From IMG/VR virus record IMGVR_UViG_3300012038_000017, positions 1-57,461 of that record: 57,461 bases of DNA; one strand, written 5' to 3'. Below the pieces are notes generated by a model. That model saw only the letters and a program-made list of their open reading frames with translations, made no database searches and was not told where the DNA came from. The stretch comes from a virus (lineage: Duplodnaviria; Caudoviricetes). Shown here piece after piece: positions 3,681-23,297 of this stretch (positions within the stretch are counted from its first letter, which is position 1; every line of letters begins with the position of its first letter). A program made the position numbers and the translations under genes.

Positions 3681-3693
3681 ATTGAGAACAAAG

Positions 3694-5096: not shown

Positions 5097-5097
5097 A

Positions 5098-5409: not shown

Positions 5410-5413
5410 GTGA

Positions 5414-6327: not shown

Positions 6328-6336
6328 TTTAACGGT

Positions 6337-7227
6337 TCACCTCACCTTTTGATACGGGGCGCACCAATGTTCGATATTTTCTACATTCTTTTGAATTACA
6401 CGAAATTCAACTTTACAATCTTTGCATCGTATTAGATACTTTGGAGAATAGGATTTTGGATCTTCATCCCAATAAGCCGCTAAAACTTCATATGGCCCAA
6501 CATTAGTTCCTATCACTAGTGACGGAACTGGTTTTTTAATTTTGTCTTTATACCGGCGATAATCCATTCGTGAAACATTTAAAGCTTTTGCCATTGCACG
6601 ATCTGAATATTCAGATTTATCTGAGCCTGTTCGTAAACCATTTGTATTCCTTTTCTTATCAGGATAATAATCACCAAGATCACATTTAGCACATCGTTTT
6701 TCATTTAATCCAATAAAGAAAAACAAAGCTTTTTGAACACTGACTGTTACTTGTGTACGACATCGAACACAAATAATATAGCGATTATACCAGATGCGAC
6801 TTTTACCAAATGCTTCTGGATTATGAGGTACAGCTATACCTAATTCAAATTCTCCAAATTCTCCTTTAAATCTAGTTCCTGGAAATAGTGTTATCGTCCT
6901 GTACGTTCCATTTGAAATGAATGCCGCATACGTGCGTGGAAAGTTACGCATCATCTCAATAATAGAATCTTCGTGAATGCTCTCCACGTCAATCTTTTTA
7001 CTTTGAAGATACTTTTTGAACATCCATAGAATATTCTCTTTCTTATATGACATTTCATAAACATAATTTGGATCGTCGCATACCGGACAAAATCCAAATC
7101 TTTTCTCTACTCCTACTTCATCCGGTCCAATTGAACCTAATGAAGTTGCACCTAATCCGGCATCTATTAGGCCATCATCGTAAGTGAAATACTTATTACA
7201 GTATCGACACTTCTTCTCTTTCAACAT
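6337..7227 (-). CDS. multi-Zn-ribbon protein
   Basis: Five CxxC pairs; C-terminal GTNVGPYEVL...RCKDC resembles the N-terminal DNA-binding modules of phage HNH proteins. Confidence 0.6.
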   Translation of the reverse strand: MLKEKKCRYCNKYFTYDDGLIDAGLGATSLGSIGPDEVGVEKRFGFCPVCDDPNYVYEMSYKKENILWMFKKYLQSKKIDVESIHEDSIIEMMRNFPRTYAAFISNGTYRTITLFPGTRFKGEFGEFELGIAVPHNPEAFGKSRIWYNRYIICVRCRTQVTVSVQKALFFFIGLNEKRCAKCDLGDYYPDKKRNTNGLRTGSDKSEYSDRAMAKALNVSRMDYRRYKDKIKKPVPSLVIGTNVGPYEVLAAYWDEDPKSYSPKYLIRCKDCKVEFRVIQKNVENIEHWCAPYQKVR

Positions 7228-7568
7228 TACCGTTTTACCCCCGCTCGAATCTTCACGAATACGAAATCACCGAATGGTTCAATCTCATATTCGTATAATG
7301 ATTCTGTAAACACTTCATCGTGTTCAAGTTCAAATAGGAAAGCATTACATTCGGCAGTTACCCAAAAGCGTCGAATATTAAATGGTAGACGTGGATAGCC
7401 GCCATCATAAGGTCCACCATGTATCTTTGCATAGAAACGATGTTTTTCATAGCGACGTGGATGCCTTTTGATTATCTCATCTGAGATAAACTTATCACAG
7501 TTTATACAAATGAAACCACTTGGTGAAGCAGTTACACGACGCCAGAAACACTTCCCTACTTTACACAT
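7227..7568 (-). CDS. hypothetical protein
   Basis: Start moved to ATG 7568 (AAGGAG RBS) to avoid overlapping csrA; CINC and HGGPYDG motifs. Confidence 0.6.
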   Translation of the reverse strand: MCKVGKCFWRRVTASPSGFICINCDKFISDEIIKRHPRRYEKHRFYAKIHGGPYDGGYPRLPFNIRRFWVTAECNAFLFELEHDEVFTESLYEYEIEPFGDFVFVKIRAGVKR

Positions 7569-7572
7569 GACA

Positions 7573-7767
7573 CTACTCCTTTTCGTTTTGAATTTCTTCT
7601 TGAATTTCTTCCTGAATACGACGTGTAATTTCTTCACGGTGAACAGATACTCCGCGTGGAGCATTAATTCCAATTCTTACTCGGTCGCCACGAATCTCAC
7701 ATATTGTGAGAATAACATCGTTGCCGATCATAATACGTTGACCTTGCTTGCGTGCTAATACTAACAT
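7573..7767 (-). CDS. csrA: carbon storage regulator CsrA/RsmA
   Basis: [46 protein letters not shown] is a canonical CsrA sequence; AAGGAG RBS. Confidence 0.95.
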
Positions 7768-7795
7768 TCTTGCTCTCCTTGCTTTTGAATTTTCA

Positions 7796-8017
7796 CTATG
7801 CAAAACGCATACTTGGACCACCATTAAATTCAACTACAATTGGTTTTCTCAATACTTCAAAATGTCGTTTAATTCCTCCTTTCTCTGGATAAGTATGCTT
7901 AAGAACAATTCCTAAATCAGTATCAAGCATTTCAATATGAAAATGCTCATTACCGTCCCCGTCAATGATGTGCGCGCTATTCAATCGTGGCTCATCGTGT
8001 TCCCAATCGTATATCAT
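7796..8017 (-). CDS. hypothetical protein
   Basis: AAGGAG RBS, ATGA overlap with the upstream gene. Confidence 0.6.
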
Positions 8018-8283
8018 TTGATTTCTCCTTTCGTTTCAGTTTTCAAGAGTTGTTCTTGTTTGAAAATTTCTTCATTCAACTCGTCTAAAATGATCTTTGA
8101 CATTTCTGCTGCTAATGCTCCAGCTTGATTATCACGGTCATAGAGATTCAGCAGTATGTCAATGAATTGTCTGTTTCTTCGTAGGCAATCAAGCCTTTTT
8201 TCTACTGGTAGAGTAGGATCAATTGGCGTTTTAACTGGTGAAATTACATTTAGCCGTTTGGCTAGTGCATCAAATCGTATCAT
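8014..8283 (-). CDS. hypothetical protein
   Basis: AGGA RBS; tiled. Confidence 0.6.
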   Translation of the reverse strand: MIRFDALAKRLNVISPVKTPIDPTLPVEKRLDCLRRNRQFIDILLNLYDRDNQAGALAAEMSKIILDELNEEIFKQEQLLKTETKGEIK

Positions 8284-8291
8284 CTTTTATC

Positions 8292-8579
8292 CTACTTCTC
8301 TAAATCAATCAGCATATAGAACACGTAATTCATTGTCAACTTTTTGTACAAGCTCATCGGATGATATTGTTCAATGATGAAGTATCCAACGTACTTCTCA
8401 TCGACAACCAACCACTCTTTTTCAATATCATTCTCAAATGTTACGAATTTGATTCTATCTTTCCAAAGATTCGGGTCATCTTCTTTAATGATGTTCTTCA
8501 GAATCTTCTCTTTTAGCTCAGCGCATGCTTTAGCAAATTCAGCACACTTTTCTTCAATATACTTACTAACGTCCATCAT
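8292..8579 (-). CDS. hypothetical protein
   Basis: GGAG RBS; tiled. Confidence 0.6.
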   Translation of the reverse strand: MMDVSKYIEEKCAEFAKACAELKEKILKNIIKEDDPNLWKDRIKFVTFENDIEKEWLVVDEKYVGYFIIEQYHPMSLYKKLTMNYVFYMLIDLEK

Positions 8580-8603
8580 TCATTCTCCGTTTTGGAAATA
8601 AAA

Positions 8604-8672
8604 CTCGTTATCGCTACTCTACGCGAACTAGCGCGCTTCAAACGCTGAACATCGTAGAGCAGCAATAAAGGG
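8604..8672 (-). ncRNA. long intergenic RNA stem (possible RNase III site)
   Basis: UUAUUGCUGCUCUACG/CGUAGAGUAGCGAUAA forms 16 bp that is fully paired only on the minus strand (G-U pairs). Confidence 0.55.
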
Positions 8673-8702
8673 TATTACTTCATTTTATCACACTCCTTTC
8701 TT

Positions 8703-9167
8703 TCAAACATTCTTCTCCACGAGGTAATTATGCAAATTCATCAACGCACCAATGTACTGTTTCCGGTTATCTTTCGTTTCATCGTGTCGATCAGCTAATT
8801 GACGAAATGGAGGAACAATATCATCTTCCAAATCATCACGATAAACACTATAAAGTAAACGATGTGCTTCACGAACGCCACCACAACGTAGCGAATTGAT
8901 TGCACATAATCGTTTACTTGTACCCGGATGCAATTTGTCGAGTTTGACGATATTCAAATCATCATCTTCAAATTCAAAATCTTTGTGATCGAACTCTTTG
9001 AGAATTGCAGCCCCGGCGAGACAGCAATAACAAACATCTTCACTTGGTTTATAAACCCAAGCGCTCATATTGATGCAGATGTTGGGTTCGTCCAAAATCT
9101 TTTCGAAATCAGATATAGCCAATAAGAGAAGATCATGGAGAGTTTTGCATTCTAATAGTCGGTTCAT
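8703..9167 (-). CDS. hypothetical protein, paralog of 9186-9665
   Basis: Shares NRLxExxTLHxLLxxAIxDFE, CxxCLAGA and AIxxLRxGGV with its neighbour. Confidence 0.75.
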   Translation of the reverse strand: MNRLLECKTLHDLLLLAISDFEKILDEPNICINMSAWVYKPSEDVCYCCLAGAAILKEFDHKDFEFEDDDLNIVKLDKLHPGTSKRLCAINSLRCGGVREAHRLLYSVYRDDLEDDIVPPFRQLADRHDETKDNRKQYIGALMNLHNYLVEKNV

Positions 9168-10082: not shown

Positions 10083-10534
10083 TCCTCCGCGTTAGCTTGT
10101 TTCACGGCACAAAGATAAAGGCAGCAGCGAGAAATCAAGTCGAGTTGTTGCCAATACTCTTTTACCGAATCAGGTATGTAGTTACGCCAGTCGTGACACT
10201 TATTTGGCTTACACCATTTCGTGTTAGAAAGTTCTATAGGATGAAACGACCCGTTGTTCTCGGTAAAGATTGACATAAGTAACGAATCAGGTATAGCGGG
10301 CTTGACCTCACTAAACGCTAATTCAATTACGCAAGTTATATCTTCACTATGGACGTGAAATATTCTCCCGCTTATATTGTGTTTGAATACTGGATTTAAG
10401 CCGATTGATGGATCAGATGAAAGGAATTGACACCCAAACCATTTAACTTTTCCATCAAATTCCTTTATTTGAACCAAATAAGACTTACTTGGATCAAATA
10501 CTTCAAACTCCGAACGATTAAAGACTTGTCGCAT
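10070..10534 (-). CDS. hypothetical protein
   Basis: AGGAG RBS; TAATG coupling. Confidence 0.6.
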   Translation of the reverse strand: MRQVFNRSEFEVFDPSKSYLVQIKEFDGKVKWFGCQFLSSDPSIGLNPVFKHNISGRIFHVHSEDITCVIELAFSEVKPAIPDSLLMSIFTENNGSFHPIELSNTKWCKPNKCHDWRNYIPDSVKEYWQQLDLISRCCLYLCAVKQANAEDWDE

Positions 10535-10932
10535 TATTGTTGACACTCCTGTGGCATTGGTCCATTATGCGATAACCAATTCTCGATCGCCTGCTTGTGA
10601 ATTGACAATGCTAATTGCGCAGCAATAGTTAATTCAATTGGAACAGCGATTCGGTATCGACCGGGTAACATATCATCACCAAATCGAACTGAACCTCTAG
10701 GACCACTTCCCATTGGATGAAGTTTCGTGTGATTCGTATGAAGTAATACGTGCGGAATAGAATTATTCCGTAGAACGCACGATAGCTCGCGCTGATGCTT
10801 CATTCCGTAATAGTCCCAAGGCGTTGTTGAAGATGAGGGAGTGTAATCATCAATTACACAATATCCAACTGGAACTTGTTCTTCAACATGGCGAATGCCG
10901 TGATCTTCGTAAATCTTTATTTCGATAGTCAT
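10534..10932 (-). CDS. hypothetical protein
   Basis: GGGAG RBS before ATG 10932. Confidence 0.6.
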   Translation of the reverse strand: MTIEIKIYEDHGIRHVEEQVPVGYCVIDDYTPSSSTTPWDYYGMKHQRELSCVLRNNSIPHVLLHTNHTKLHPMGSGPRGSVRFGDDMLPGRYRIAVPIELTIAAQLALSIHKQAIENWLSHNGPMPQECQQ

Positions 10933-10934
10933 TA

Positions 10935-11342
10935 CTACTCCCTTCCTGGTATACAAATCATATTACCACAATCTTGACATTGAACCGCATTTAGCAAATG
11001 TCTATACGGATCATAACGATACTTCCAACCACAATTACCACATTCGACTTCTGCGGTTTTGAAATCAGTTTTGAAATCAGGATATTCTTTAGTTGGAGTT
11101 TGCACACGCACAAACTTACCGTCGATCTTCTGATATAGTTCCCATTTCGCACCGTCGCCAGCATCTTGTGGGAAACCAACTGAAGCGCCTTTAACTAACT
11201 CACGAAGTAATTGTTCCGCGAGTATCTTATTATCCACAATATCATCGTCTGCTTCGACGAATGAACTTCCTGGTGGATAGTATATCAGGTATTGCCGATG
11301 TTCTACTTTGGGTTCACTCATTCCTTTATTCTCCATTATCAC
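10935..11342 (-). CDS. hypothetical protein with C-terminal Zn ribbon
   Basis: CGNC...CQDC. Confidence 0.6.
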   Translation of the reverse strand: MIMENKGMSEPKVEHRQYLIYYPPGSSFVEADDDIVDNKILAEQLLRELVKGASVGFPQDAGDGAKWELYQKIDGKFVRVQTPTKEYPDFKTDFKTAEVECGNCGWKYRYDPYRHLLNAVQCQDCGNMICIPGRE

Positions 11343-11548
11343 TCTCCATTATCGTAAGCATCATTTGACGCCTTCACGGTGAAGGTATCAATCTCATCTT
11401 CCGTCAACTCGAAATCATTCCCATATTCGTCTGTCGCATAAACAGTTTCAGGTCCGTACGGAATTCCGACAGATTCATCACCGTCGAAATCGGTACACGT
11501 AATTGTGACGTGCGTACCTCGAATGAATTCGTCATATTCAAGTTTCAT
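11339..11548 (-). CDS. small acidic hypothetical protein
   Basis: GGAG RBS; D/E rich. Confidence 0.6.
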   Translation of the reverse strand: MKLEYDEFIRGTHVTITCTDFDGDESVGIPYGPETVYATDEYGNDFELTEDEIDTFTVKASNDAYDNGE

Positions 11549-11560
11549 TTTTCATTCTCC

Positions 11561-11612
11561 ATAAGTAACTTCAGCCGCCACACCCGCAGGTGTAGCGTAG
11601 GGAATTACTCAT
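11561..11612 (-). ncRNA. intergenic hairpin family, copy 6 (subtype B)
   Basis: AUGAGUAAUU/AGUUACUUAU outer stem, internal loop containing GCUGA, upper stem CGCUACACC/GGUGUGGCG. Confidence 0.6.
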
Positions 11613-11614
11613 TC

Positions 11615-11767
11615 TTATTCGCAAACAAACCACGATTCAATTTCATTCCAAACATCTTCGTCGATGTTGCTTTTGAATTCTTCCAACTTTTGTTGCCACG
11701 TTGATAATTTGAGATTAATTACCTGCGTCAAAAGTTCATTCAGCTTTTCCCAATCTGCTTCTGTCAT
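11615..11767 (-). CDS. small protein, paralog of the N-terminus of 14013-14315
   Basis: MTEADWEKLNELLTQVI...W..K..E...ESWF aligns with MLTSREWDTFNSLLAKIV...W..K..E...ASWF. Confidence 0.65.
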   Translation of the reverse strand: MTEADWEKLNELLTQVINLKLSTWQQKLEEFKSNIDEDVWNEIESWFVCE

Positions 11768-11771
11768 CCTT

Positions 11772-11972
11772 TCATTCTCCTGTTCGATCACTTGGTTTAG
11801 AAACATCCGGCCACATGAAACCTTCTTTCGCAATTAACTCATCACGTTGCTTACGAAGTTTTTCGATTTCTTTTGCTGCCAAAAGAAACAACGCTTGATA
11901 ATTAGTTACAATACTTTCATTGTAACTTGCTTCAATTAGATCGTCGATGATGTCTATCTGATTATTCATCAT
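11772..11972 (-). CDS. hypothetical protein
   Basis: DIIDDL...AAKEIEKLR is a common small phage protein pattern; start moved to 11972. Confidence 0.55.
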   Translation of the reverse strand: MMNNQIDIIDDLIEASYNESIVTNYQALFLLAAKEIEKLRKQRDELIAKEGFMWPDVSKPSDRTGE

Positions 11973-12219
11973 CCCCACCAAAATCAAATGCACGCGAATC
12001 TTCGTTCTGATCGTCCCACGGAGTAGATTCCCAATTAACTCCGTGTCCCATCGTAATATCGAGTTGTTGATCGTCTGGAATTGGCGTCGGCAATCTGCAA
12101 ATTCGCAGAATAGAAACCGTACCACATTTTTCAACTTCTGCTTCGTCATTGGTGTGAAAGTAAATCACACCACGTTCTGAATCAATCTCAAGTTCGCCTT
12201 TAATTGTGCGCGTGCTCAT
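11962..12219 (-). CDS. hypothetical protein
   Basis: Tiled ORF. Confidence 0.55.
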   Translation of the reverse strand: MSTRTIKGELEIDSERGVIYFHTNDEAEVEKCGTVSILRICRLPTPIPDDQQLDITMGHGVNWESTPWDDQNEDSRAFDFGGDDE

Positions 12220-12220
12220 T

Positions 12221-12427
12221 TCATAATCCCAATGCTTCAAGTGGACGTTGAATCAAATAATGATTTGGACCACTAACCGAATCTACGATATAGTCGTCCA
12301 AATTAAATAATTCTTTGCGTTGTTCATCCGAGGTGCAATACACAAAATTGTACTTACAACCGTTGATCGGATTAATTGCAGATTCGAGTGTAATATCCCA
12401 TTTCAGTAGCCACTCATTCAGCGTCAT
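12221..12427 (-). CDS. hypothetical protein
   Basis: GGAGG RBS before ATG 12427. Confidence 0.55.
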   Translation of the reverse strand: MTLNEWLLKWDITLESAINPINGCKYNFVYCTSDEQRKELFNLDDYIVDSVSGPNHYLIQRPLEALGL

Positions 12428-12632
12428 TCGGTTCCTCCTTAATATCATCAATATGAATCAATTTCATCTCACCATCTTGTGCAACGACGGTGTACCAATA
12501 AAGCATTTCTTTCGCTCTGTCACGAAATAAAAGTCTTGCTTGGCGCTTCGCAAAAGGAATTGTGACTCCTAATTCTTTTGCTACACGTTCAATGTCGTCA
12601 ATTGACGGATAGAAGTCAAATTTGATAATCAT
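12414..12632 (-). CDS. hypothetical protein
   Basis: GAGG RBS; ATGA overlap. Confidence 0.55.
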   Translation of the reverse strand: MIIKFDFYPSIDDIERVAKELGVTIPFAKRQARLLFRDRAKEMLYWYTVVAQDGEMKLIHIDDIKEEPNDAE

Positions 12633-12829
12633 TCAAGTTCAACCTCAATAAATGAACCAGTTCTACCTGATTGTGGACCCCAATCTAAGTCCTCATCAAT
12701 CTCCATTCCAGTTTTTCTATCAAAAGTCCAACTTCCACAAATAATAACTGTAGAAGTTAAATCAGTTATAACTAACTTCATTGATGCTGTACCACCAATA
12801 TACCGTTTTACAGTGTCACCTATTTTCAT
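12629..12829 (-). CDS. hypothetical protein (MKIGDTV, SH3/KOW-like)
   Basis: Tiled ORF. Confidence 0.55.
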   Translation of the reverse strand: MKIGDTVKRYIGGTASMKLVITDLTSTVIICGSWTFDRKTGMEIDEDLDWGPQSGRTGSFIEVELE

Positions 12830-12831
12830 AA

Positions 12832-13248
12832 TTAACAACCCATCCTTCTTTCCGAATCTCTCATTCGTTCGTATTCACGTTGTTCTTCTTCAGCAGCAAT
12901 TACTCTTGAATCGTCAGTAACAGCAACAACACGAAGTCCGCCGCAGTTATAACAACATACATCGTAACGGCCACTACAATAATCCTCTGCAAATTCTGGA
13001 TCATTATTGAATTCCTCAGCGCTAATTCCACCGGCATCGATAGAAGGGTTAACATGTTTTCCTTTACCATCACAAGTTGGACAAACTTCCCACGTGAACG
13101 GAGTTTCAAATTCAGTTTCATTGCCTTCATCATCTTCAGCAATGATAGTTGCAACCATTCGCTTTTGATCCAATGCTCTGTACCACTTCTTGTGCGAACT
13201 AGCGCGCACACGATAGTCGGAATAATAGTTTCGATCTTCGCTATTCAT
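12832..13248 (-). CDS. DnaJ-type CxxCxGxG zinc-finger protein
   Basis: CPTCDGKG...CYNCGG. Confidence 0.65.
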   Translation of the reverse strand: MNSEDRNYYSDYRVRASSHKKWYRALDQKRMVATIIAEDDEGNETEFETPFTWEVCPTCDGKGKHVNPSIDAGGISAEEFNNDPEFAEDYCSGRYDVCCYNCGGLRVVAVTDDSRVIAAEEEQREYERMRDSERRMGC

Positions 13249-13460
13249 TATTTATCTCCAATCACAAAATGAGAAGCATCACAATCTTTGATATAGTCGT
13301 GCATTTGTTGCCGATAGAAATACGTTCCATCTAACAAGATACCGGAAGTGACAATTCCATTTGCATTCGCGCTAACAGCTTTCAATCGTACTCCATGCTT
13401 CGGCCATTGTTCAAATGGTACGTCAATTAGTTTATCCAATTGTTTTAATCGAACACACAT
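13248..13460 (-). CDS. hypothetical protein
   Basis: GGAG RBS; tiled. Confidence 0.55.
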   Translation of the reverse strand: MCVRLKQLDKLIDVPFEQWPKHGVRLKAVSANANGIVTSGILLDGTYFYRQQMHDYIKDCDASHFVIGDK

Positions 13461-13482
13461 AACAATTACTCCGAGTTCTGAA

Positions 13483-13548
13483 AAGTAACTTCAGTCACCG
13501 GCGGAGCTGTATTAATTAAATACGGCCCGCCAGTGTAGGAAACTACTT
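13483..13548 (-). ncRNA. intergenic hairpin family, copy 5 (subtype B)
   Basis: AAGUAGUUUC/GAAGUUACUU outer stem, CUA/ACU internal loop, long upper stem. Confidence 0.65.
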
Positions 13549-14004
13549 CTTTTTCGCAGCAGCTTCTTTTGCTTTCTTTTTCGCTTCCTGCTTTTTCTTT
13601 TCTAATTGTTGCACTTTCTTTTTCGCACGCATGATATCCATTTCAATTGAGCGCTCTTCAACTGAATCACCTCTACTAATCATTTGCTCAATTGAAGCTT
13701 CGGCTTTCGCAACGTGTTGTTCGTGAAACCACTTCAACCACTTGAAATAATCAAGTGGATCAGCAAAAGCAGATGCGCTTAATTGTTTATGCCGTTCCAT
13801 GTTGAAACCTGGTGTTTCACATGATTGCAATTTACCGCTCGGAACCGAATATTCGATGCGAGGTAATTTGCTACTTTTCTTCTTCGGTGTTATTTCCTCT
13901 GGTTTAGTTTCCTCTGGTTTAGTTTCCTCTGGTTTAGTTTCTTCATTCACAGTTTCAGTCAATTGTTCAGAATTCATAATCATTCTATCCCTTTCGCTTT
14001 TCAA
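13543..14004 (-). CDS. charged protein, paralog of 21314-22030
   Basis: Shared IExxVPxGK..S.ETPGF...HKxL...FAxPxDxFxW..W.H block; Lys-rich tail. Confidence 0.75.
   Translation of the reverse strand: MKSERDRMIMNSEQLTETVNEETKPEETKPEETKPEEITPKKKSSKLPRIEYSVPSGKLQSCETPGFNMERHKQLSASAFADPLDYFKWLKWFHEQHVAKAEASIEQMISRGDSVEERSIEMDIMRAKKKVQQLEKKKQEAKKKAKEAAAKKK
13893..13941. repeat. 15-bp tandem repeat x3 (EETKP)
   Basis: TTTCCTCTGGTTTAG x3. Confidence 0.9.
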
Positions 14005-14012
14005 AATGTGAG

Positions 14013-14315
14013 TTATTCGTCATCTTCGTCATCAATTTCCGCGTCGATAGGAAGATCGTTATCTTCATCATCAATCTCATCCTCATAATCATCGTCGTCA
14101 TCGACGATTTCATCAACCTCATCATTTTCATATTCATCCTCATCTTCATCTTCATCAAATTTCCCAGAATCAGGAAACCAACTTGCGAATTCCTCCAAAT
14201 TCACTTCGTTGCAATGTTTTCGCACTTCCTGTGCTTTTTCATCCCAATCTGTCTCTGCGCGAACAATTTTCGCCAAAAGACTATTAAATGTATCCCATTC
14301 TCTCGAAGTCAACAT
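14013..14315 (-). CDS. protein with extremely acidic C-terminal half
   Basis: DEDEDEDEYENDEVDE... tail; start region AAAGGGTCTGCACTATG. Confidence 0.75.
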   Translation of the reverse strand: MLTSREWDTFNSLLAKIVRAETDWDEKAQEVRKHCNEVNLEEFASWFPDSGKFDEDEDEDEYENDEVDEIVDDDDDYEDEIDDEDNDLPIDAEIDDEDDE

Positions 14316-14336
14316 AGTGCAGACCCTTTCTAAAAG

Positions 14337-14660
14337 TTAGGAACGTGATGGAAACCGTGATGCTTTATCAAATATCTTTTCACGAACAATTGTGAAATCC
14401 GTTTCTGCGAGAATGAAATTCTTCATTTCACGCGGAATGAATTCGCCAAGATATTGTGTCCGTTCTTCCGTCTTATCATCCGAATAATCAACAGCAAACA
14501 ATTCGATCTTGTCGATAATAATTGACGGTGGCGGACAATCGGGATGCGGAATATCAATATGATATTCCGCTGCGAACGTCGCATGATAGAAACCGTTGTA
14601 TTTAGTAATACCGGCTCCACAATCAATGCGTTTGTCATAAATACTTACGGTCAATTGCAT
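14337..14660 (-). CDS. hypothetical protein
   Basis: Start moved to ATG 14660 (AAGG upstream). Confidence 0.6.
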   Translation of the reverse strand: MQLTVSIYDKRIDCGAGITKYNGFYHATFAAEYHIDIPHPDCPPPSIIIDKIELFAVDYSDDKTEERTQYLGEFIPREMKNFILAETDFTIVREKIFDKASRFPSRS

Positions 14661-14755
14661 GAATAATACCTTAATGCGGTGAAAAGATGTGCGAAGCAAA
14701 CAACCCAAACGAGCAATCCGAGGAATACAATTCCCCATAATGAAAATCGTTCCAT
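14651..14755 (-). CDS. 34-aa single-TM micropeptide (not in ORF track)
   Basis: GAAAGGA RBS; MERFSLWGIVFLGLLVWVVCFAHLFTALRYYSCN. Confidence 0.5.
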   Translation of the reverse strand: MERFSLWGIVFLGLLVWVVCFAHLFTALRYYSCN

Positions 14756-14783
14756 TTCTTTTATCCTTTCCTTCAATTAGAAA

Positions 14784-14831
14784 TAGTTACCTCAGTCTAC
14801 GGCGCGCCACCGCCGTAGTGTGAGAAAACTA
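14784..14831 (-). ncRNA. intergenic hairpin family, copy 4
   Basis: UAGUU.UCUCA-CA-[CUACGGCG/CGCCGUAG]-AC-UGAGG.AACUA. Confidence 0.7.
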
Positions 14832-16181
14832 CTCAACAACTTCTTCCATTAATGATGCAGCTAGATTAAACGCGTAATTCTGCAAATCACGCGTGAAATC
14901 GTCCGCACCAGTAAAGTAGTGCGCCAATTCTTCAAGGATAGTCGATGTGCAAGTTGCATTATCAACATTAATGCAAACTGCTTTGATCTTCTTATCGTAA
15001 TACCCACGAAGCGTTTCATTGTTGTTCGTGTTTTTCACGAATGAAATTATCTTCGGACATTCCTTTCCTTCAACACGACCACGTGCGCGAAGTGCACGAT
15101 AGATTTGAAATACTTTTTGTTCGGTTGCTTTCCGCAACTTCACAATAGTAACATTTTTGGTCAAATCAGAACCAACAATTGAATTGATTGTTGGCACACC
15201 GTAAGTTTGCATCTCTTGGAAAAAAGATGTTCCACCTACTGGCAATGTAATAACTGAGATATTCCGTTTCTCAGCAATTTGATTCAACCGCTTGTCAGAT
15301 GAAATGAGAGTCGCACCGGCAACTTGTTGCCAAAGCTTTGCCCATCTTGGATTTCCATTTAAGGAATAATATGGGACTTGCAATTCAAATATTTTCCTCT
15401 CATCACGAATTGCCTGAAAAACCGCGATTAACGCGGAATCATCACTTGAAAGAGATGTTGCAATATGTCGCATACAAATTGCATCATCCAAGTTGCGGCA
15501 TTCGTCAATCGGCAACTCTTTATCAAAGTTGTAATCGAATAGGGATTCTTCAAATCCATTCGATTTATTCGGCTGGAGTTGCCGAATAAAAACTCCTTTC
15601 CGATAAATACGCGGCGGAGATTTATCTCCTTTTGGAATGAACTTCAATTTTTCGAGCTGGCGGAAATGAAGAAATCGCGTTGCAATTGCAGAATGATATT
15701 CCCGAACGTGGTCGTTGTAAGGAATAAAAATACGCGTGTGTCCTGGAATTCCAGATGGCGACCAATCATATCCACCAATTTGGTATGGCGGATTATCAAT
15801 GGCATTGGAAACATATTCTCGCAATGCCATATCAAGATTGTTCCAATCAATTGCGCCAAACTCGAAACAATAACTGAGTTTGTGCTCTTGACCCTGCCAT
15901 CTGTACCAAACTTCACGATACATATGGCCATTATCAAGTTGTGCTTGACGAGAAAAGAATTCCAACTGTTCTTCACCGATGAAGATAATTGGATTGATTT
16001 CAGCGCGAAGGCATAAAAGAATTGCTTGTTTCACGCCTGAACCAAATTGGCCAATCTTATCATCGTTTCCACGTGATGTAGATAATCCCATCACGGTGAA
16101 ACATTCGACTGGCGAAACTCCTTCATTCTGAATTAGAAGCCATTTGGCTCCCGGTGAAGGTTTATCTGTCGTGTACTTCAT
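14829..16181 (-). CDS. GHKL-type ATPase (permuted motif order) with C-terminal zincin-like motif
   Basis: IQNEG, STSR...IGQFGSG, ALREYVSNAID, GHTRI; C-terminal LEELAH. Confidence 0.7.
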   Translation of the reverse strand: MKYTTDKPSPGAKWLLIQNEGVSPVECFTVMGLSTSRGNDDKIGQFGSGVKQAILLCLRAEINPIIFIGEEQLEFFSRQAQLDNGHMYREVWYRWQGQEHKLSYCFEFGAIDWNNLDMALREYVSNAIDNPPYQIGGYDWSPSGIPGHTRIFIPYNDHVREYHSAIATRFLHFRQLEKLKFIPKGDKSPPRIYRKGVFIRQLQPNKSNGFEESLFDYNFDKELPIDECRNLDDAICMRHIATSLSSDDSALIAVFQAIRDERKIFELQVPYYSLNGNPRWAKLWQQVAGATLISSDKRLNQIAEKRNISVITLPVGGTSFFQEMQTYGVPTINSIVGSDLTKNVTIVKLRKATEQKVFQIYRALRARGRVEGKECPKIISFVKNTNNNETLRGYYDKKIKAVCINVDNATCTSTILEELAHYFTGADDFTRDLQNYAFNLAASLMEEVVE

Positions 16182-16225
16182 TCTTTCAATCCTCTCTCAA
16201 TTAGAATACTGGGTTTTGAAATACT

Positions 16226-16284
16226 GCGAATTCGATTCGGTCACCGGCGGAATTTTCTCCGCCGGTGTGCGAAGCAAACTCAGC
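16226..16284 (-). ncRNA. intergenic hairpin family, copy 3
   Basis: GAGUUUG.C.UUCG-CA-[CACCGGCGGA/UCCGCCGGUG]-AC-CGAA.U.CGAAUUC. Confidence 0.75.
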
Positions 16285-16635
16285 TTATTTGGCCTGAAAT
16301 ACACTGAAGAATGCTTTGAATTCTTCACATGATTTAAATCCCGCGTTGGGATTTTCCTCAGTTAATAAATTCAAAGTTTGCTGCCATTCCTTCGTGTCGT
16401 TTTCTTCAATCGTGCGAACAATTTGATTCGCCCATTCAATTGCGTTGAACCAATTGTGCGTCAATAAAACTTGCACGATGAAGATCCATTCCGGTGAAAG
16501 ATCAGCTTGATATACGCCGCGCGTACAACTTTCAAGTAACGAGTTGGAATGCCCATATGCTGCGGCATATCCATCTTCACGGAATTCGGCAGCAATAAGA
16601 ATTGCTTGCGCTAAATCGTAACTTCTCATTTGCAT
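16285..16635 (-). CDS. hypothetical protein
   Basis: GAAAGGA RBS. Confidence 0.65.
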   Translation of the reverse strand: MQMRSYDLAQAILIAAEFREDGYAAAYGHSNSLLESCTRGVYQADLSPEWIFIVQVLLTHNWFNAIEWANQIVRTIEENDTKEWQQTLNLLTEENPNAGFKSCEEFKAFFSVFQAK

Positions 16636-16656
16636 TTATATCCTTTCGTATTGTGT

Positions 16657-16905
16657 TTAGGGGATTGGTCTGCATTCTGGCGGACAGTTTGCTAGTAATT
16701 GCTCCAGCATTGGATAACTTTCTGCTGGAATATCACCATGACAACAAATCATTCCAGCAACCATCTTTTCAAATTGGCAGAATTCCATCTGCAATGAAAA
16801 GATGTTGCCCGATTGATTATCAATCAATCGAACCCACAATTTGCCAGTATCAATGTCGTCGGCAATTACGCGATTGTCCTCGCACGTTAAATCGAAATGA
16901 AACAT
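16657..16905 (-). CDS. hypothetical protein
   Basis: Start moved to ATG 16905 (AAAGGA upstream). Confidence 0.55.
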   Translation of the reverse strand: MFHFDLTCEDNRVIADDIDTGKLWVRLIDNQSGNIFSLQMEFCQFEKMVAGMICCHGDIPAESYPMLEQLLANCPPECRPIP

Positions 16906-16921
16906 TATGTTGTTTGATCCT

Positions 16922-17308
16922 TTATAAGTGGTCGGGATTGTATTTGACACGCAATTCAGCAATTTCGTACTGATCGACACTTTCCTCATTTGTGCCGTGA
17001 AAATGAGTAATAGTAACCATCGCGAGAAATTCGTCGCGTTCACACCATGTTGTATTTTCCGGTGTGTAATCAATTCGGAATGTCGCATCGTTGCGCATTA
17101 GTTGTGTTCCATGCGTCACTTTAATTGACGCAATTGCAATTCGTAAAGCTTCATCGCGATTAATGAAACTTCCGAAGTGTGCGAGTGTTCGTCCCGATTC
17201 TTCATCACGTACTCGAACCGTATAATGATTCGCTGGCGGTGAAGTTGGATGAACCGATAATACTGGCTCGCCTGATTCCATTATTTTTACTTTCTTCTTT
17301 CTCCCCAT
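16922..17308 (-). CDS. hypothetical protein
   Basis: Start moved to ATG 17308 (GAAAGGA upstream). Confidence 0.6.
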   Translation of the reverse strand: MGRKKKVKIMESGEPVLSVHPTSPPANHYTVRVRDEESGRTLAHFGSFINRDEALRIAIASIKVTHGTQLMRNDATFRIDYTPENTTWCERDEFLAMVTITHFHGTNEESVDQYEIAELRVKYNPDHL

Positions 17309-17344
17309 TTTCTTTTCTATCCTTTCGTGCATGATAATAGGTTG

Positions 17345-17400
17345 CTAATTCGATTCAGTCTCGCGCCCGTGAATGCGGGCGCGAGTGTGAAGCAAACTAG
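17345..17400 (-). ncRNA. intergenic hairpin family, copy 2
   Basis: CUAGUUUG.C.UUCA-CA-[CUCGCGCCCG/CGGGCGCGAG]-AC-UGAA.U.CGAAUUAG. Confidence 0.75.
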
Positions 17401-19613
17401 TTGCCATTCTCGATCTGCGGAATCAAATTCAGAATAGCTTGCAAGATTTCCTTAATATCTTGCAACCGTTCCGACATTTCGATCTTACCTTGCACCCGAT
17501 AATAGATATCCATATCTATTGTTCCTGGGATAAGTAAGTCGGTAATATGAAGCGGAACACGCGTGATAAGACGATGTGCTCTATCGTCAGCTTGCGAACG
17601 ATTTCCAGCACTCCAATTGCTGGAATAATAGATACAGTCAGTCGTGTTGGTTGTATATTGCGTTGGATTGTGTGGGTCAAAACCAACTAGATTAAGACCT
17701 ACGCCACCACTTGCAGCAATACCAACAAATACTTGCGTTTCCGGGTCGCAATTAAATTGGTCGATTGAATTTTGCTTGTCAGCATCTTTCATCGTACCGT
17801 GAAACCCAACTGATTTAATTCCATGTTTCGCGAGACGTTCGCGAATCATTTCAATATTTTCTTTGAAACAAACCCAAACCAAAGCTTTCCGATTCTTATC
17901 TTGTAGGATTCCTTCCATCGCGCTACCATTCTCGGAATCTTCCGAATCTTCTAATTCAGAATCCGGCTTATCGCCAATAAGATATCGAATAAGCAATTCC
18001 AACTTCGCGCCATCGGTGAAGTAATGCGCTTCTTTATTATCAAGACGGGCATAACCGCTTGTAATTTCAGCAAGACGCAACATCATCGACAACACGTTAT
18101 TAACTGTCATCGTTTCTGGTGCACCACGTGCTTTATCAGCCGCAATCTTTGCTTCGATTTCTGCACCAAGTTGCGATGCAAGTTGCACGTAAACACGTTT
18201 TTGCTCTTTCGACATTGAGGTTTCTAATGTTCCCCAAGTTTTCTTTGGCAAAAATGGTAATGCTTCCTCCTTTCCGATAATGAAAGCATATCGTGCCATT
18301 TTCTCCTTTAATAAAGGAATGTTCTGAAAACCAGTTAACTTCGCCATTCCTTCATGTGAAGCTTGATATTCACCGTAGAATGCCTTGAACGCGGAATAAG
18401 ATTCAAACCCGGAATATCCATTTCCAAGGAATTCAAGCTGACAGTAGATATCGAACGGAGTATTGCGGAACGGTGTTCCAGTTGCGAGAACTACCGATGC
18501 AAAGTGCCCGTTGCGCCGTGCTTCAAGATAATACTTTGTCCGCTTTGTCGATGGATTGCTAATATTGTGTCCTTCATCTAAAAGACACAAATCAAATTCC
18601 ATGCTGAGAGGAGCGGCAAGTAATTGCTTTGTTGCGACAAAGCTTTCATATCCACTAATGAGAACAATATGCTTCTCAAGATGCGCCACCGATGCAATAT
18701 CGGTAAGACAATTCACCAATCGTTCCGTGTTATTTAAACCACGGAGGGTGATGATATGAATCTTGTCAGCACAATTGCTGAATTGCGCGATCTCAGTTTT
18801 CCAATTAGTTCTTATTGTCTTTGGACAAGAGATAAGAGTAAAACTGACGCGACCAGATAATTCGGCATTGTGGATAGTGTGGTCTAATTTCCGAATCATC
18901 ATTAAAGTTTTGCCCGTTCCTGGTGCGCAGAAAAGAGCAAAAGCTTTAGAATGACAAGAATTAAAACTAGCACATTTCTGATATGCAGTTAATTCCTTGC
19001 CAGTACGCTCCTTCAGGATTCGGTCCTGTTCGTCAAACCATTCCGATGAAGGAACAATGCCATTTATTTTGTAATTGGCAGTTCTCTCAGCATTTTGCTC
19101 CGCCACAAATTCGCGGAGATAAATTTCTTGAAAGAATGGTTTCGCAGCATCCGAAATAACAGTTCGATTAGTCCATGCACGTTGAATAAGATGCACGGTG
19201 TAATCTGTCATTGGCACTTCGTATATTGGATGATATACGTTTGCACGATTTAATTTCGTTGCACCATGAAGGAAACGCTTTTCTACAAAGCGTTGAGCGC
19301 GAATAGAACGCGGTGAACGTGCAACTTTCATTTTGACGATAATAGGATTACCGTCGCCATCTAATTGCTCCATGTCTTGCATAACTTCGTCATATATTTC
19401 AATGACGAATTTATTAACAATCCGGCCATCGGAGCGAGTTGTTTTATGAACCGATAGGCGAAGGACAGCTTCACCTAGGTTCGTTTCTGGTTTCAAATAT
19501 TCCTGTGATGCCAACGTCTCAGCGATATATTCGCTATTACGCGCATCTAAAGGAATAATTTGATCGATTGAATTTTCGGACACTCCGGTGCCCAAATCAA
19601 CAGCGGTGCTCAT
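17397..19613 (-). CDS. SNF2-family SF2 helicase
   Basis: APGTGKT, LDEGH, ATGTP, SGGVGLNL, QADDRAHR. Confidence 0.92.
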   Translation of the reverse strand: MSTAVDLGTGVSENSIDQIIPLDARNSEYIAETLASQEYLKPETNLGEAVLRLSVHKTTRSDGRIVNKFVIEIYDEVMQDMEQLDGDGNPIIVKMKVARSPRSIRAQRFVEKRFLHGATKLNRANVYHPIYEVPMTDYTVHLIQRAWTNRTVISDAAKPFFQEIYLREFVAEQNAERTANYKINGIVPSSEWFDEQDRILKERTGKELTAYQKCASFNSCHSKAFALFCAPGTGKTLMMIRKLDHTIHNAELSGRVSFTLISCPKTIRTNWKTEIAQFSNCADKIHIITLRGLNNTERLVNCLTDIASVAHLEKHIVLISGYESFVATKQLLAAPLSMEFDLCLLDEGHNISNPSTKRTKYYLEARRNGHFASVVLATGTPFRNTPFDIYCQLEFLGNGYSGFESYSAFKAFYGEYQASHEGMAKLTGFQNIPLLKEKMARYAFIIGKEEALPFLPKKTWGTLETSMSKEQKRVYVQLASQLGAEIEAKIAADKARGAPETMTVNNVLSMMLRLAEITSGYARLDNKEAHYFTDGAKLELLIRYLIGDKPDSELEDSEDSENGSAMEGILQDKNRKALVWVCFKENIEMIRERLAKHGIKSVGFHGTMKDADKQNSIDQFNCDPETQVFVGIAASGGVGLNLVGFDPHNPTQYTTNTTDCIYYSSNWSAGNRSQADDRAHRLITRVPLHITDLLIPGTIDMDIYYRVQGKIEMSERLQDIKEILQAILNLIPQIENGN

Positions 19614-19645
19614 ATTGGTTTAATCCTTTCGATTTGTTGGTTCAA

Positions 19646-19672
19646 TTAGATTGATTAGATTGATTAGATTGA
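19646..19672. repeat. 9-bp tandem repeat x3
   Basis: ATTAGATTG x3. Confidence 0.85.
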
Positions 19673-19674
19673 GA

Positions 19675-19743
19675 GGCGAATTCAATTCGTTCCGGGCATT
19701 AGAATGAAGATATATCTGATGCCCGGTGCGGAGCAAACGCGCC
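19675..19743 (-). ncRNA. intergenic hairpin family, copy 1
   Basis: GGCG.GUUUG.C.UCCG-CA-[CCGGGCAU/AUGCCCGG]-AA-CGAA.U.UGAAU.CGCC. Confidence 0.65.
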
Positions 19744-19748
19744 GATTA

Positions 19749-19982
19749 TTAACGCACGTAATTGCAATCCATTAATTCAATTGCTTTATTTGCAAATGAA
19801 GGTGAAGTGACAGGATTACAAAATTCGACCAAAGCACGGGCGTCGAATTGGGGTAGACATTCAACCGATAGATATGGCGAATTATTTGGTTCAGTTAATT
19901 CACCAGTGTCGACAATGAAAACACGCCACATTTTGTTGTGACGCATAATGTAGAAACAATCGTTTGTGGAATACCATTGCAT
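19749..19982 (-). CDS. hypothetical protein, first gene of the leftward operon
   Basis: AAAGGA RBS before ATG 19982. Confidence 0.55.
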   Translation of the reverse strand: MQWYSTNDCFYIMRHNKMWRVFIVDTGELTEPNNSPYLSVECLPQFDARALVEFCNPVTSPSFANKAIELMDCNYVR

Positions 19983-20079
19983 GATTGATTTAATCCTTTG
20001 TTGCAATTAGAGTTGTAATTGCCGATTTAATTCGACCCGGATTCCAAACCGCTCGCCCGCGCGAGCCTTCCGGCGTCAA

Positions 20080-20220
20080 ATTATACGCAACAGTCAAGGG
20101 CTGCCATTTTGACAGGCACTTTTCGTGGGAAATATGCGTGTTTTCGCCATTGGACACATGGTTTCACCATGAAACTGCCATAATGACAGACTCTAGGAGG
20201 TAAAACTGTCATTATGACAG
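20080..20220 (-). promoter_or_regulatory. leftward promoter (TATAAT at 20085-20080) with three CTGYCATWWTGACAG palindromes
   Basis: Palindromes at 20101-20115, 20175-20189 and 20206-20220. Confidence 0.6.
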
Positions 20221-20271
20221 TTGTTTATTAGGTTGTTATTAGGCTTGAATTAGGAATTAGAGTGCTAATTG

Positions 20272-20327
20272 AATTAATGCTGCAATTAATGCTGCAATTA
20301 GTGCTGCAATTAGTGCTGCAATTAGTG
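20272..20327. repeat. 12-bp tandem repeat x4.6
   Basis: AATTARTGCTGC. Confidence 0.9.
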
Positions 20328-20375
20328 GGCGGTCATCGTCCGTGCGTGTGTTCGGAATTATTGGGGAAACCCTAA

Positions 20376-20536
20376 TTAAAGTTGTTCAGATGGCGTAAGA
20401 CTCTGTTATACAGAACTCATATAAGCCGCACCCACACCACCACCACACACACACACACACACACCCTATATATGGTATATATTGTATGTATGTATGTATG
20501 TATATAACGCGGTCTTACGGACTTGAACAACTTTAA
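20376..20536. repeat. ~35-bp inverted repeat enclosing (CA)n and (TATG)n tracts; candidate origin
   Basis: TTAAAGTTGTTCA..CGTAAGAC..GTTATA (20376-20410) and its inverse (20503-20536). Confidence 0.8.
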
Positions 20537-20652
20537 CTACCGCTTTCGCGGTAGTTCCGAATTAGGAGGGGGCTTTCATTGGGCGGTCATCGTGCGCACG
20601 CGTAATTGCAGCGTTGATTCAAATTACGGTCATCGTGCGCGGTCATCACACA

Positions 20653-20698
20653 CATGTATTGCACGCATGGTTGTTCGCATGTATTGCACGCATGGTTG
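20653..20698. repeat. 21-bp direct repeat x2
   Basis: CATGTATTGCACGCATGGTTG at 20653 and 20678. Confidence 0.85.
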
Positions 20699-21031
20699 CA
20701 CAATACGTTGTTACAATATGTTGAAATAACTACGTTGGAATTACGCGTAGTTTAAATAGGGGTGTTCGCGCACGATACAAATTGCCCGAATTCGGATGAT
20801 ATTGTTCGCGCACGAATTGAATTTGCAATTGGAAACTATGCCTGTAGAACGCATAGAATGCTCTACGTTGCGTGATCTTGTTTGAGGTATCCCAGTACAG
20901 AAAACAAAAGATCTCGCAAACGGAGCGAAATGGCCTTATTTTTGTACACTACTTTGTACACTACAAAAAATGGCCTGTGGGAGAGCTATATATAAGGAAT
21001 AGAATTCGATACCGAATTGACGATACCCCTA

Positions 21032-21060
21032 TTGACAGTTTGACCAATAGTCATCAAACT
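21032..21060 (+). promoter_or_regulatory. putative rightward sigma70-type promoter
   Basis: TTGACA-N17-CAAACT, overlapped by the inverted repeat CAGTTTGA/TCAAACTG. Confidence 0.4.
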
Positions 21061-21313
21061 GCCGTTGTCGGTTGTTTGCTCTTTCACAATTCGGTTCGGT
21101 TTTGGCGACGGAGTGTTGACGCCTAGTCACGCGACGTTCCGCAAAGTTTCTGTCACGTGAATTCAATTCACGACGGAGCGCGGAGCGGTTGCAAACGACA
21201 ATGGCCAAGCATATGCCGCATTAAGCGACGTTTCCAAACTGAGTAGCAATCACCAATCACGCGACATTCTGTCGCGTGAAATCTTTCCTCTATTCCTCAA
21301 AGGAATATCTCAA

Positions 21314-22030
21314 ATGTCAGTTGCAACTAGTTCCGCCAGCGTTGTCGATTCCAGTTTGCCAACTTCAGCTGATATCATCGACGAACCAATTGATTCTGTC
21401 ACGCAACCAGAAACGGATGCGACGGACAATGGTTCGACCGATACGGCAGAAACGCAACCAGAAACGACAGGTAAGAAACGCGGGCCAAAAGCTGGTTCCA
21501 AACGACCCGGAGCTAAGATCGAATTCGGCGTTCCTGAAGGAAAGTTTCTGTCAAAGGAAACTCCCGGATTTGAATGTCGCTTTGAGAACAAAGGCGGACA
21601 TAAAAAACTCAAACCGGAAGATTTTGCTTGTCCGATGGACTGGTTTGAATGGCAATTATGGTATCACAACGAATTCGCACGGATGGCGAAATATGAGCGC
21701 GACGAATATCGCGCTCTAGGTGATACTGAGGAACAACGCGCCTTGAATGTCGATTTGAACGCCGCTTTGAACGCTGGTTTGAGCAAACTCAAATCAAATG
21801 AATCGACGGCGGTTGCGAAGCCAAAAGCAACTAATGCAATGATCGACAAAATGCGCGAAATGCAAGCTGAATTGGCCCGCGTAATTGCGGAATCAATGGC
21901 AGCCAACGCTGAAGCTGAAGCAACCGAGCAAGCTGAAGCATCCGCGCAGCAATCGGTTGTGATTGAAGTTTCCGAAACCGTTTCGGAAACCGTCGTCAAT
22001 GAAACTAAATCGAATAAGCGCAAACGATAG
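21314..22030 (+). CDS. charged protein with basic patches (possible DNA-binding), paralog of 13543-14004
   Basis: KKRGPKAGSKRPG patch, shared ETPGF/HKxL/FAxPxD block, own terminator. Confidence 0.8.
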   Translation: MSVATSSASVVDSSLPTSADIIDEPIDSVTQPETDATDNGSTDTAETQPETTGKKRGPKAGSKRPGAKIEFGVPEGKFLSKETPGFECRFENKGGHKKLKPEDFACPMDWFEWQLWYHNEFARMAKYERDEYRALGDTEEQRALNVDLNAALNAGLSKLKSNESTAVAKPKATNAMIDKMREMQAELARVIAESMAANAEAEATEQAEASAQQSVVIEVSETVSETVVNETKSNKRKR

Positions 22031-22048: not shown

Positions 22049-22089
22049 CACGCTGGCGGGAGAATTCTCCCGCCAGCGTGTTTTTGTTT
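22049..22089 (+). terminator. intrinsic terminator formed by a perfect 32-bp palindrome
   Basis: CACGCTGGCGGGAGAATTCTCCCGCCAGCGTG followed by TTTTTGTTT. Confidence 0.85.
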
Positions 22090-23259: not shown

Positions 23260-23297
23260 AGGCCGGGAGTGTTTACGCACTCCCGGCCTTTTTCTTT
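23260..23297 (+). terminator. intrinsic terminator
   Basis: AGGCCGGGAGTG/CACTCCCGGCCT followed by a T-tract. Confidence 0.85.

Follow-up and report, generated by a model that had tools for sequence, protein, structure and literature searches.

The window analysed here is the whole of an IMG/VR virus record (IMGVR_UViG_3300012038_000017; Duplodnaviria, Caudoviricetes), 57,461 bases in length with a G+C content of about 40% and an estimated completeness of 88%. Its genes are arranged in a leftward block that runs from about 20,200 down to 1, a rightward block (about 21,300–52,000) carrying terminase, portal, protease and major head protein genes, and a second leftward block carrying a family-A DNA polymerase. 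The leftward block includes genes for an SNF2 helicase (17397–19613, minus strand), a conserved protein of 450 amino acids (aa) (14829–16181, minus strand) and a primase/MCM-type helicase (775–3651), and its remaining genes are mostly ORFans without a family match. Our subject is a family of six RNA hairpins encoded on the minus strand between 11561 and 19743. All six sit between co-oriented open reading frames (ORFs) and are presumably carried on one shared transcript. A previous sequence-only reading had proposed such a dispersed family; the family is real and is wider than that reading saw, as it occurs in related phages, comprises two loop subtypes, contains an invariant C-G pair and is found at the borders of insertions and deletions.

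All six hairpins are present at the places where they had been reported. Folded as minus-strand RNA, they have predicted energies of −25.8 to −34.9 kcal/mol (z −4.1 to −8.7), and for every copy none of 200 shuffled sequences was as stable as the native one. Hairpin 1 (copy 19675; 19675–19743; −27.2 kcal/mol, z −4.1) lies between an ORF of 77–85 aa and the SNF2 helicase gene, and is the most diverged type-A copy, with a CA/AA loop and an extended apical part. Directly 3′ of the helicase gene is hairpin 2 (copy 17345; 17345–17400; −33.2 kcal/mol, z −8.7), composed of 8 base pairs (bp), a C.U mismatch, 4 bp, a CA/AC loop, 10 bp and a loop of 6 nucleotides (nt). The 450-aa gene is enclosed by hairpin 3 (copy 16226; 16226–16284; −34.9 kcal/mol, z −7.0), which precedes it, and hairpin 4 (copy 14784; 14781–14834; −27.9 kcal/mol, z −5.6), which follows it. 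The former is laid out as 7(+2) bp, C.U, 4 bp, CA/AC, 10 bp and a 6-nt loop, and the latter as 8 bp, U.U, 5 bp, CA/AC, 8 bp and a 6-nt loop. Hairpin 5 (copy 13483; 13481–13550; −30.6 kcal/mol, z −6.0) has 12 bp, a 3x3 loop (CUA/ACU) and 9 bp, followed by an apical extension. Hairpin 6 (copy 11561; 11561–11612; −25.8 kcal/mol, z −5.2), a marginal member, has 10 bp, C.A, 1 bp, a 3x3 loop (CUA/GCU), 9 bp and a 4-nt loop, and its 3′ arm extends into the Shine-Dalgarno sequence of the next gene.

Each of the six directly follows a stop codon, as first noted, with the stop either inside the base of the stem or no more than 5 nt before it. A UAG lies within the stem in the three copies for which this had been claimed, namely hairpins 2 (17397–17399), 4 (14829–14831) and 5 (13543–13545). 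In the others a UAA precedes the stem, by 0 nt in hairpin 3 (16285–16287), 2 nt in hairpin 6 (11615–11617) and 5 nt in hairpin 1 (19749–19751). The distance from hairpin to next start codon is 12–61 nt. Stop-codon read-through was considered and rejected, as the frame past the helicase UAG closes after 14 codons.

A covariance model (R1) was built from hairpins 2, 3 and 4 only and run without filters on both strands of the window. The seeds scored 71.8, 73.9 and 54.4 bits, respectively, and two copies outside the seed were recovered: hairpin 5, at 13481–13550 (33.8 bits, E 1.7e-7), and hairpin 1, at 19677–19741 (23.3 bits, E 3.2e-4). Hairpin 6 scored 12.2 bits (E 0.95), below the best unrelated match, a palindrome at 27935–27966 (13.4 bits). 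It is kept because its arms match those of hairpin 5; the 12-nt 3′ arm CUGAAGUUACUU is identical in the two, and their 5′ arms share CCUAC. The family in the window consists of five firm copies and one marginal one, and the unfiltered model found no further copy there. Antisense matches at the hairpin places scored much lower, at 34.7, 30.5, 19.8 and 11.8 bits, and the comparison of sense with antisense scores is partly circular because the model was built from the minus strand. On 58 unrelated phage loci (940,573 bases, T7 included) the model gave no match at E ≤ 1 with default filters. The proposal that this is not a described family also holds against Rfam 15, which gave no match in the window at gathering thresholds; at E ≤ 5, six weak matches were returned over 11400–19900, none of them on a hairpin.

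Relatives were sought through the SNF2 helicase, homologs of which occur at 41–54% identity in a large protein collection. A profile made from an alignment of 20 helicase homologs matched one IMG/VR contig (L002, 48% identity) and six metagenome contigs (L051 69%, L055 67%, L056 64%, L052 51%, L053 45% and L054 36%), and had no match among genome contigs. Viral contigs yielded no match in a single-protein scan and none in a scan with the exact hairpin pattern, and the alignment of the 450-aa protein returned from them only the L002 contig again together with distant phages. Three loci picked up by a looser pattern (L059–L061) were discarded as chance matches, having neither a match to the model nor a helicase. 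In the phage genome collection, megablast of 11000–20000 found no close relative. The best relative by protein there is MW202657 (31% identity), which served as outgroup; it gave no match to the model with filters off and has no intergenic gap after its helicase.

The hairpin family was found in three of the seven relative loci (L051, L055 and L002; helicase identity 48–69%). The copy at L055:1548–1601 (45.8 bits) lies before the 450-aa gene and is the ortholog of hairpin 3. L051:3401–3454 (31.0 bits) follows the 450-aa gene, in synteny with hairpin 4, and L051:1506–1557, which is identical to L055:721–772 (23.2 bits), follows the helicase, in synteny with hairpin 2. The places after the helicase and before and after the 450-aa gene are thus the same as those of hairpins 2, 3 and 4, and the coding DNA that flanks these syntenic hairpins is only 67–70% identical. 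L002 has one copy after a 117-aa ORF (12425–12489; 20.6 bits) and another after the helicase (11969–12046), the latter found by a separate scan only, because of a 30-nt apical insert. A degenerate copy, read by eye, lies before the 450-aa gene in L051 (1961–2012). L052 is not informative because the contig ends 46 nt past the helicase stop.

Structured elements of other kinds were observed in two of these contigs. After the L053 helicase (12011–12055) there is a 7-bp stem enclosing a hairpin, GGTTCGATTCC, that resembles a tRNA T-arm; ARAGORN called no tRNA at this place, and the element could be a tRNA-like processing signal. The early operon of L002 holds three tRNAs (Leu-taa, 14180–14267; Met-cat, 14699–14774; Thr-tgt, 19927–20001), and only three tRNAs were returned from the relatives by Rfam at gathering thresholds.

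The architecture was counted over 11 copies from four contigs, as predicted folds. From the base upward it comprises a lower stem of 6–12 bp, a 1x1 mismatch, a further 3–5 bp, an internal loop, an upper stem and an apical part of 4–30 nt. The arms are about 25 nt long and mostly covary, and the whole helix amounts to some 22–25 stacked positions from base to apical loop. The upper stem of 8–10 bp contains 5–9 G-C pairs and differs in all copies, in agreement with the earlier description of a GC-rich stem of free sequence. A 2x2 or 3x3 internal loop lies 8–10 bp below the apical loop in 11/11 copies. The 2x2 loop is CA/AC in hairpins 2, 3 and 4, in L055:1548 and in both L002 copies, and CA/AA in hairpin 1; the 3x3 loop is CUA/ACU in hairpin 5 and L051:1506, UUA/ACC in L051:3401 and CUA/GCU in hairpin 6. 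Syntenic copies can differ in loop form (hairpin 4 and L051:3401; hairpin 2 and L051:1506), and the two forms therefore interconvert. At the junction, the first pair of the upper stem is C-G and the base 5′ of that pair is A in every one of the 11 copies, while AC follows it on the 3′ side in nine. The 1x1 mismatch is mostly C.U, U.U or U.C. The consensus given in the sequence-only reading was accordingly too narrow: its outer stem AGUUUG/CGAAUU occurs in only two of the six window copies (GUUUG in three), its CA/AC loop in three, and its C.U mismatch also in three, with U.U in hairpin 4, C.A in hairpin 6 and none in hairpin 5. The conservation of these imperfections is more than a plain exonuclease block or a terminator would need.

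Covariation was measured in two ways. Since MAFFT alignments of all copies (A1, A7) misplaced the stems, we used counts anchored by coordinates and a model-fitted alignment (A9). For the former, 10 non-redundant copies were anchored on the loop, and their 3′ arms were exchanged among copies. In the upper stem 79 of 80 positions pair within a copy, versus 43.6 ± 5.9 after swapping (cross-copy pairing of 3.97 of 8), and in the lower region 112 of 130 pair, versus 81.0 ± 5.0; in neither did any of 10,000 permutations reach the observed pairing. The A9 alignment comprises 13 rows, and its 12 distinct ones include three window copies read in antisense as well as the three seeds of the model. In it 91.2% of cells are paired versus 61.5 ± 2.3 when shuffled (0/500), the covariation score is 0.787 versus 0.252, and changes on both sides are seen in 21 of 22 pairs, the sole pair that never varies being the C-G pair at the junction. 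Sliding the partner by 1–3 columns reduces pairing to 30–40%. The A9 figures lean towards structure because the alignment was fitted to it and the copies are related, but the swap and slide controls are clear nonetheless. The compensatory changes described at the outset are in this way confirmed.

The claim that G-U pairs fix the strand is upheld in the main, with 24 G.U against 2 A.C in the stems of 10 copies. The minus sense is the more stable in five of the six window copies, hairpin 1 being the exception (sense/antisense minimum free energy, in kcal/mol: hairpin 2, −33.2/−31.7; hairpin 3, −34.9/−27.2; hairpin 4, −27.9/−23.1; hairpin 5, −30.6/−29.4; hairpin 6, −25.8/−16.2). With RNA parameters the full bipartite fold is obtained for all six, while under DNA parameters the minimum free energy fold of three either lacks the lower stem or pairs it differently, and energies drop to −10 to −19 kcal/mol. 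These predictions favour RNA over single-stranded DNA as the form in which the elements would act.

Several known classes of element were considered and set aside. The hairpins are G+C-rich, as in intrinsic (Rho-independent) terminators, but have no U-tract, as had been noted before, and a scan of 10500–21500 that found 13 terminator-like sites picked up none of the six. Terminators with U-tracts occur elsewhere in the genome (3659–3680, minus strand; 22049–22080 and 23260–23289, plus strand). The first of these, with the tail TCTTTTCTTG, lies just before the primase gene; like a 16-bp hairpin with a U-rich tail in the leftward block (8608–8668, minus strand), it falls outside the hairpin family. 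Promoter-like sites in 10500–21500 number 26, which is not above the shuffled expectation of 28.0 ± 5.7, and none of these is a sigma-70-like site within 60 nt downstream of any hairpin. A copy-and-paste repeat of the REP/RAYT or IS200/IS605 kind was rejected on the grounds that the upper stem differs in every copy; the copies were therefore not spread in this manner, and the Y1 transposase domain PF01797 is absent from the 57.5-kb record (88% complete), in a search that did match its control genomes. No tandem G.A pairs of the kind found in a K-turn were seen by eye in the loop sequences. Readings as tRNA-like elements, CRISPR repeats or ribozymes were dismissed, there being no Rfam match and no tRNA called by ARAGORN in the window.

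The hairpins are also found where related phages differ in gene content. L055 and L051 are 90–94% identical except at one place, where L055:1147–1607, comprising one ORF and a hairpin, is replaced in L051 by 1934–2018, comprising only the degenerate hairpin; the right breakpoint is no more than 7 nt from the 3′ end of the hairpin. In L002, two near-identical units, each made of a few upstream bases, the hairpin and about 25 nt of downstream leader, flank the single 117-aa ORF. We infer from this arrangement that the conserved arms and leader could act as homology patches where ORFan cassettes come and go or replace one another. With two cases, a role in gene shuffling is a lead; the link between hairpins and indels hints at the way in which this lineage reshuffles its ORFans. 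Separately, an exact 13-nt copy of the 5′-arm word, as in hairpin 3, was observed at 14689–14701 (minus strand) without a nearby 3′ partner, in the N-terminal hydrophobic part of the ORF at 14337–14738. With up to one mismatch the word has four matches, against 0.10 expected, and the orphan may be a recombination relic.

A second short word, TCTAATTGA, accompanies some of the hairpins on the minus strand. It occurs after hairpin 1 as the last of three 9-nt tandem units (19642–19650), between hairpin 3 and the ATG, at distances of 21 and 15 nt from them, respectively (16197–16205), and at hairpin 4 (14773–14781), where its first base is the last paired base of the stem. The word after hairpin 3 is partly conserved in L051 and L055 as TATTCTTATGAGAGG, and TCTAATTGA itself also follows the hairpin at L051:1506. 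Its core, CTAATTG, is found 26 times in the window versus 10.75 expected, a number reached in none of 100 shuffles, with 10 of these occurrences on the minus strand in the interval 11.9–20.3 kb. Possible roles for the word are as a regulator site or as an element of a promoter specific to the phage. The divergent control region between the operons (20160–21300) is dense in repeats: five tandem 12-mers at 20260–20331 contain the CTAATTG core, and there are in addition a 21-nt direct repeat (20653, 20678), 13-nt repeats (20763, 20803), a 12-nt tandem repeat (20941–20964) and a (TACA)n...(GT)n stretch (20441–20509). These repeats look like operators or origin iterons.

Metagenome runs labelled as freshwater sediment or groundwater contain near-identical DNA. 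The sign of the GC skew switches near 18–20 kb, and the genes likely run in the same direction as replication, in which case the hairpin strand would be the lagging-strand template. A domain search of the 57.5-kb record found neither an RNase III domain nor a double-stranded RNA-binding domain. A T7-type RNA polymerase likewise gave no match in the record, an absence that is weak evidence because the same search matched nothing in its control genomes. Host enzymes would accordingly be used. The 450-aa protein, which is 70% identical in L051 and 41% in L002, matches only phrog_8203, a group of no known function, and no Pfam family; its invariant IGQFG.G motif is reminiscent of the ATP-binding fold of GHKL/Hsp90-type ATPases, a putative link. 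Among the rightward-block genes of unknown function there is an HNH endonuclease gene (25822–26400, plus strand; phrog_59, E 1e-43).

Taken as a whole, the observations are consistent with the six elements being cis-acting RNA hairpins of a long leftward early transcript that is processed by host RNase III, as in T7, in a way that leaves a protective hairpin at the 3′ end. We favour this reading tentatively, at somewhat below an even chance. The enzyme, the cut and its effect are our inference. An idealised RNase III substrate is 22 bp long, and loops, bulges or mismatches at the target cause one strand to be cut and leave stabilising 3′ hairpins, as set out in PMC3867540. In vivo, the two positions between RNase III cuts are usually paired and often G-C, according to PMC6212723. 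In length and loop position the predicted folds suit an RNase III substrate, with a helix of 22–25 stacked positions and a loop 8–10 bp below the apical loop. Host RNase III would bind the helix of about two turns, and the central internal loop would allow only one strand to be cut, probably on the loop's 3′ side (GAC|UGA). Cuts of this kind would divide the polycistronic RNA into six or seven pieces. The piece upstream of a cut would retain the hairpin as its 3′ terminus and be protected by it from 3′ exonucleases, and the piece downstream would begin with a new 5′ end 12–61 nt before a start codon. Should the elements prove to be processing sites, a phage that has no close relative in culture would be following T7 in having a host enzyme cut its early RNA, with a hairpin design that evolved independently. 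From this design one obtains a short motif that defines an RNA family new to Rfam 15, and with it a means of recognising early operons among metagenomic phage contigs. Because the loop and the mismatch are easily mutated, the hairpins offer a convenient system for asking how irregularities in a helix direct the action of double-strand RNases.

A number of points weigh against this reading. RNase III needs no conserved sequence, and the invariant A/C-G/A junction therefore points equally to a protein that reads sequence. The imperfections could be there to keep RNase III away and not to direct it, and the rules applied above may not be those of the host enzyme. Hairpin 1 folds better in antisense (−27.2/−35.7 kcal/mol), and strandedness alone has no power to exclude a role as single-stranded DNA, since the same strand would serve as the template of lagging-strand synthesis. 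Comparisons draw on a small set of 11 copies from four contigs. In L056, at 64% helicase identity, the hairpin after the helicase has a different internal loop, and in L053 (45%) and L054 (36%) the family is absent. There is no RNA run among the runs with near-identical DNA, and the contigs of four DNA runs over 11400–19900 are pieces of 150–1000 nt, too fragmentary to inform.

The invariance of the junction is the principal reason to consider that a dedicated protein of phage or host binds A/C-G/AC together with the mismatch, and thereby governs read-through, the stability of the RNA or the translation of the block that follows. The invariant positions are confined to the internal-loop junction, with no such constraint on the sequence of the remaining helix, and an RNA-binding protein could be among the early ORFs, most of which are ORFans. 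No candidate protein has been identified, however; the apical loops, which are the usual reading heads of phage RNA-binding proteins, are not conserved, and the spread of 12–61 nt to the start codon argues against a fixed translational operator. We regard this as possible but unlikely. Rather less probable is a passive role, as 3′ stabilisers, insulators or weak attenuators that, without any specific cut, would stall 3′ exonucleases or pause RNA polymerase at block ends; the imperfections would then do no more than keep RNase III from destroying the RNA or the DNA from being unstable. Very stable folds right after stop codons would suit such a role, and the stem-loops of PeSL (promoter-early stem-loop) elements in T4-like phages act as terminators or attenuators (PMC2839356). 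Yet the loop and mismatch are kept in position and sequence over relatives at 48–69% identity, beyond what a passive block would require, and the hairpins have no U-tract, whereas true terminators of the same genome do.

A role mainly at the level of DNA, with the hairpins as homology patches for cassette exchange or as lagging-strand structures for priming or for a nuclease, draws on the breakpoint at the hairpin in the L055/L051 replacement, the hairpin units flanking one ORF in L002, the orphan 13-nt word inside an ORF and the change in GC skew that would make the hairpin strand the lagging-strand template. Recombination needs identity only and not compensatory changes, yet 21 of 22 pairs covary; the upper stems differ in every copy, the G.T-rich lower stems are weak as DNA, and the record has no Y1/HUH transposase domain. 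A mainly DNA-based function is improbable. Possible but unlikely is a broader proposal in which the junction and mismatch form the recognition code of a new factor, either a phage ORFan protein or a host nuclease other than RNase III, and in which the hairpin and leader, about 100 nt together, make up a portable joint that both punctuates the early RNA and exchanges ORFan cassettes between phages. Such a joint would, if the proposal is true, amount to an RNA-structured version of the T4 PeSL system that lacks the promoter, in a lineage of freshwater phages that is still unstudied.

Processing by host RNase III, the reading we favour, draws on an analogy with T7 that had already been made in the sequence-only reading, and which stands at the level of architecture. 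Five T7 early intergenic regions, which we take to be the RNase III sites R0.3, R0.5, R1, R1.1 and R1.3 that are cut in T7, fold into a homologous family with predicted upper stems of 9, 10, 9, 10 and 13 bp and a conserved unpaired 3′ segment after the upper stem. Like the elements described here, they are dispersed, homologous, bipartite hairpins between early cistrons, directly after stop codons. There is no likeness in sequence, as the covariance model gave no match on T7 bases 1–9000 (L070). In T7 it is the upper stem whose sequence is conserved (AAGGUC...GGCCUU) and the lower stem that is weak; in the window the upper stem is free in sequence, the lower stem is strong, the internal loop is a symmetric 2x2 or 3x3, there is an extra 1x1 mismatch, and cleavage is presumed. 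Panganiban and Whiteley reportedly described in 1983 sites in the early mRNA of the Bacillus phage SP82 that are cut by B. subtilis RNase III. These resemble the elements of the window, at the level of description only, in being conserved hairpins of a phage early transcript processed by a host enzyme (PMC4838370), and the strategy of early-RNA processing is therefore not limited to T7 or E. coli.

Two further phage systems resemble the hairpins in their distribution. The PeSL elements are likewise repeated intergenic stem-loops in ORFan-rich early regions; they are found on either side of single ORFs, at sites where closely related phages differ by an insertion, a deletion or a replacement (PMC2839356, PMC4122927). 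A PeSL includes a consensus sigma-70 promoter, and its stem-loops act as terminators; the hairpins of the window, in contrast, have no adjoining sigma-70-like site and no U-tract, and are long, bipartite and covarying, with conserved internal loops. The ESAS elements (extended start-associated sequences) of Cluster K mycobacteriophages are also imperfect inverted repeats dispersed in one orientation upstream of some genes and accompanied by a second short conserved word near the start codon (PMC3203893). They differ in having sequence-conserved arms of 17 bp, a spacer of 4–13 bp and a tie to the SAS at the start codon. The window hairpins, with covarying arms of about 25 nt, an apical part of 4–30 nt and a start codon 12–61 nt away, do not belong to this class, and TCTAATTGA follows only three of the six, unlike the word that accompanies ESAS. 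Set against a literature that was searched for analogues and not for the motif itself, the family described here is in kind similar to known phage devices (the T7 and SP82 sites and the PeSLs), while its design is new and not in Rfam.

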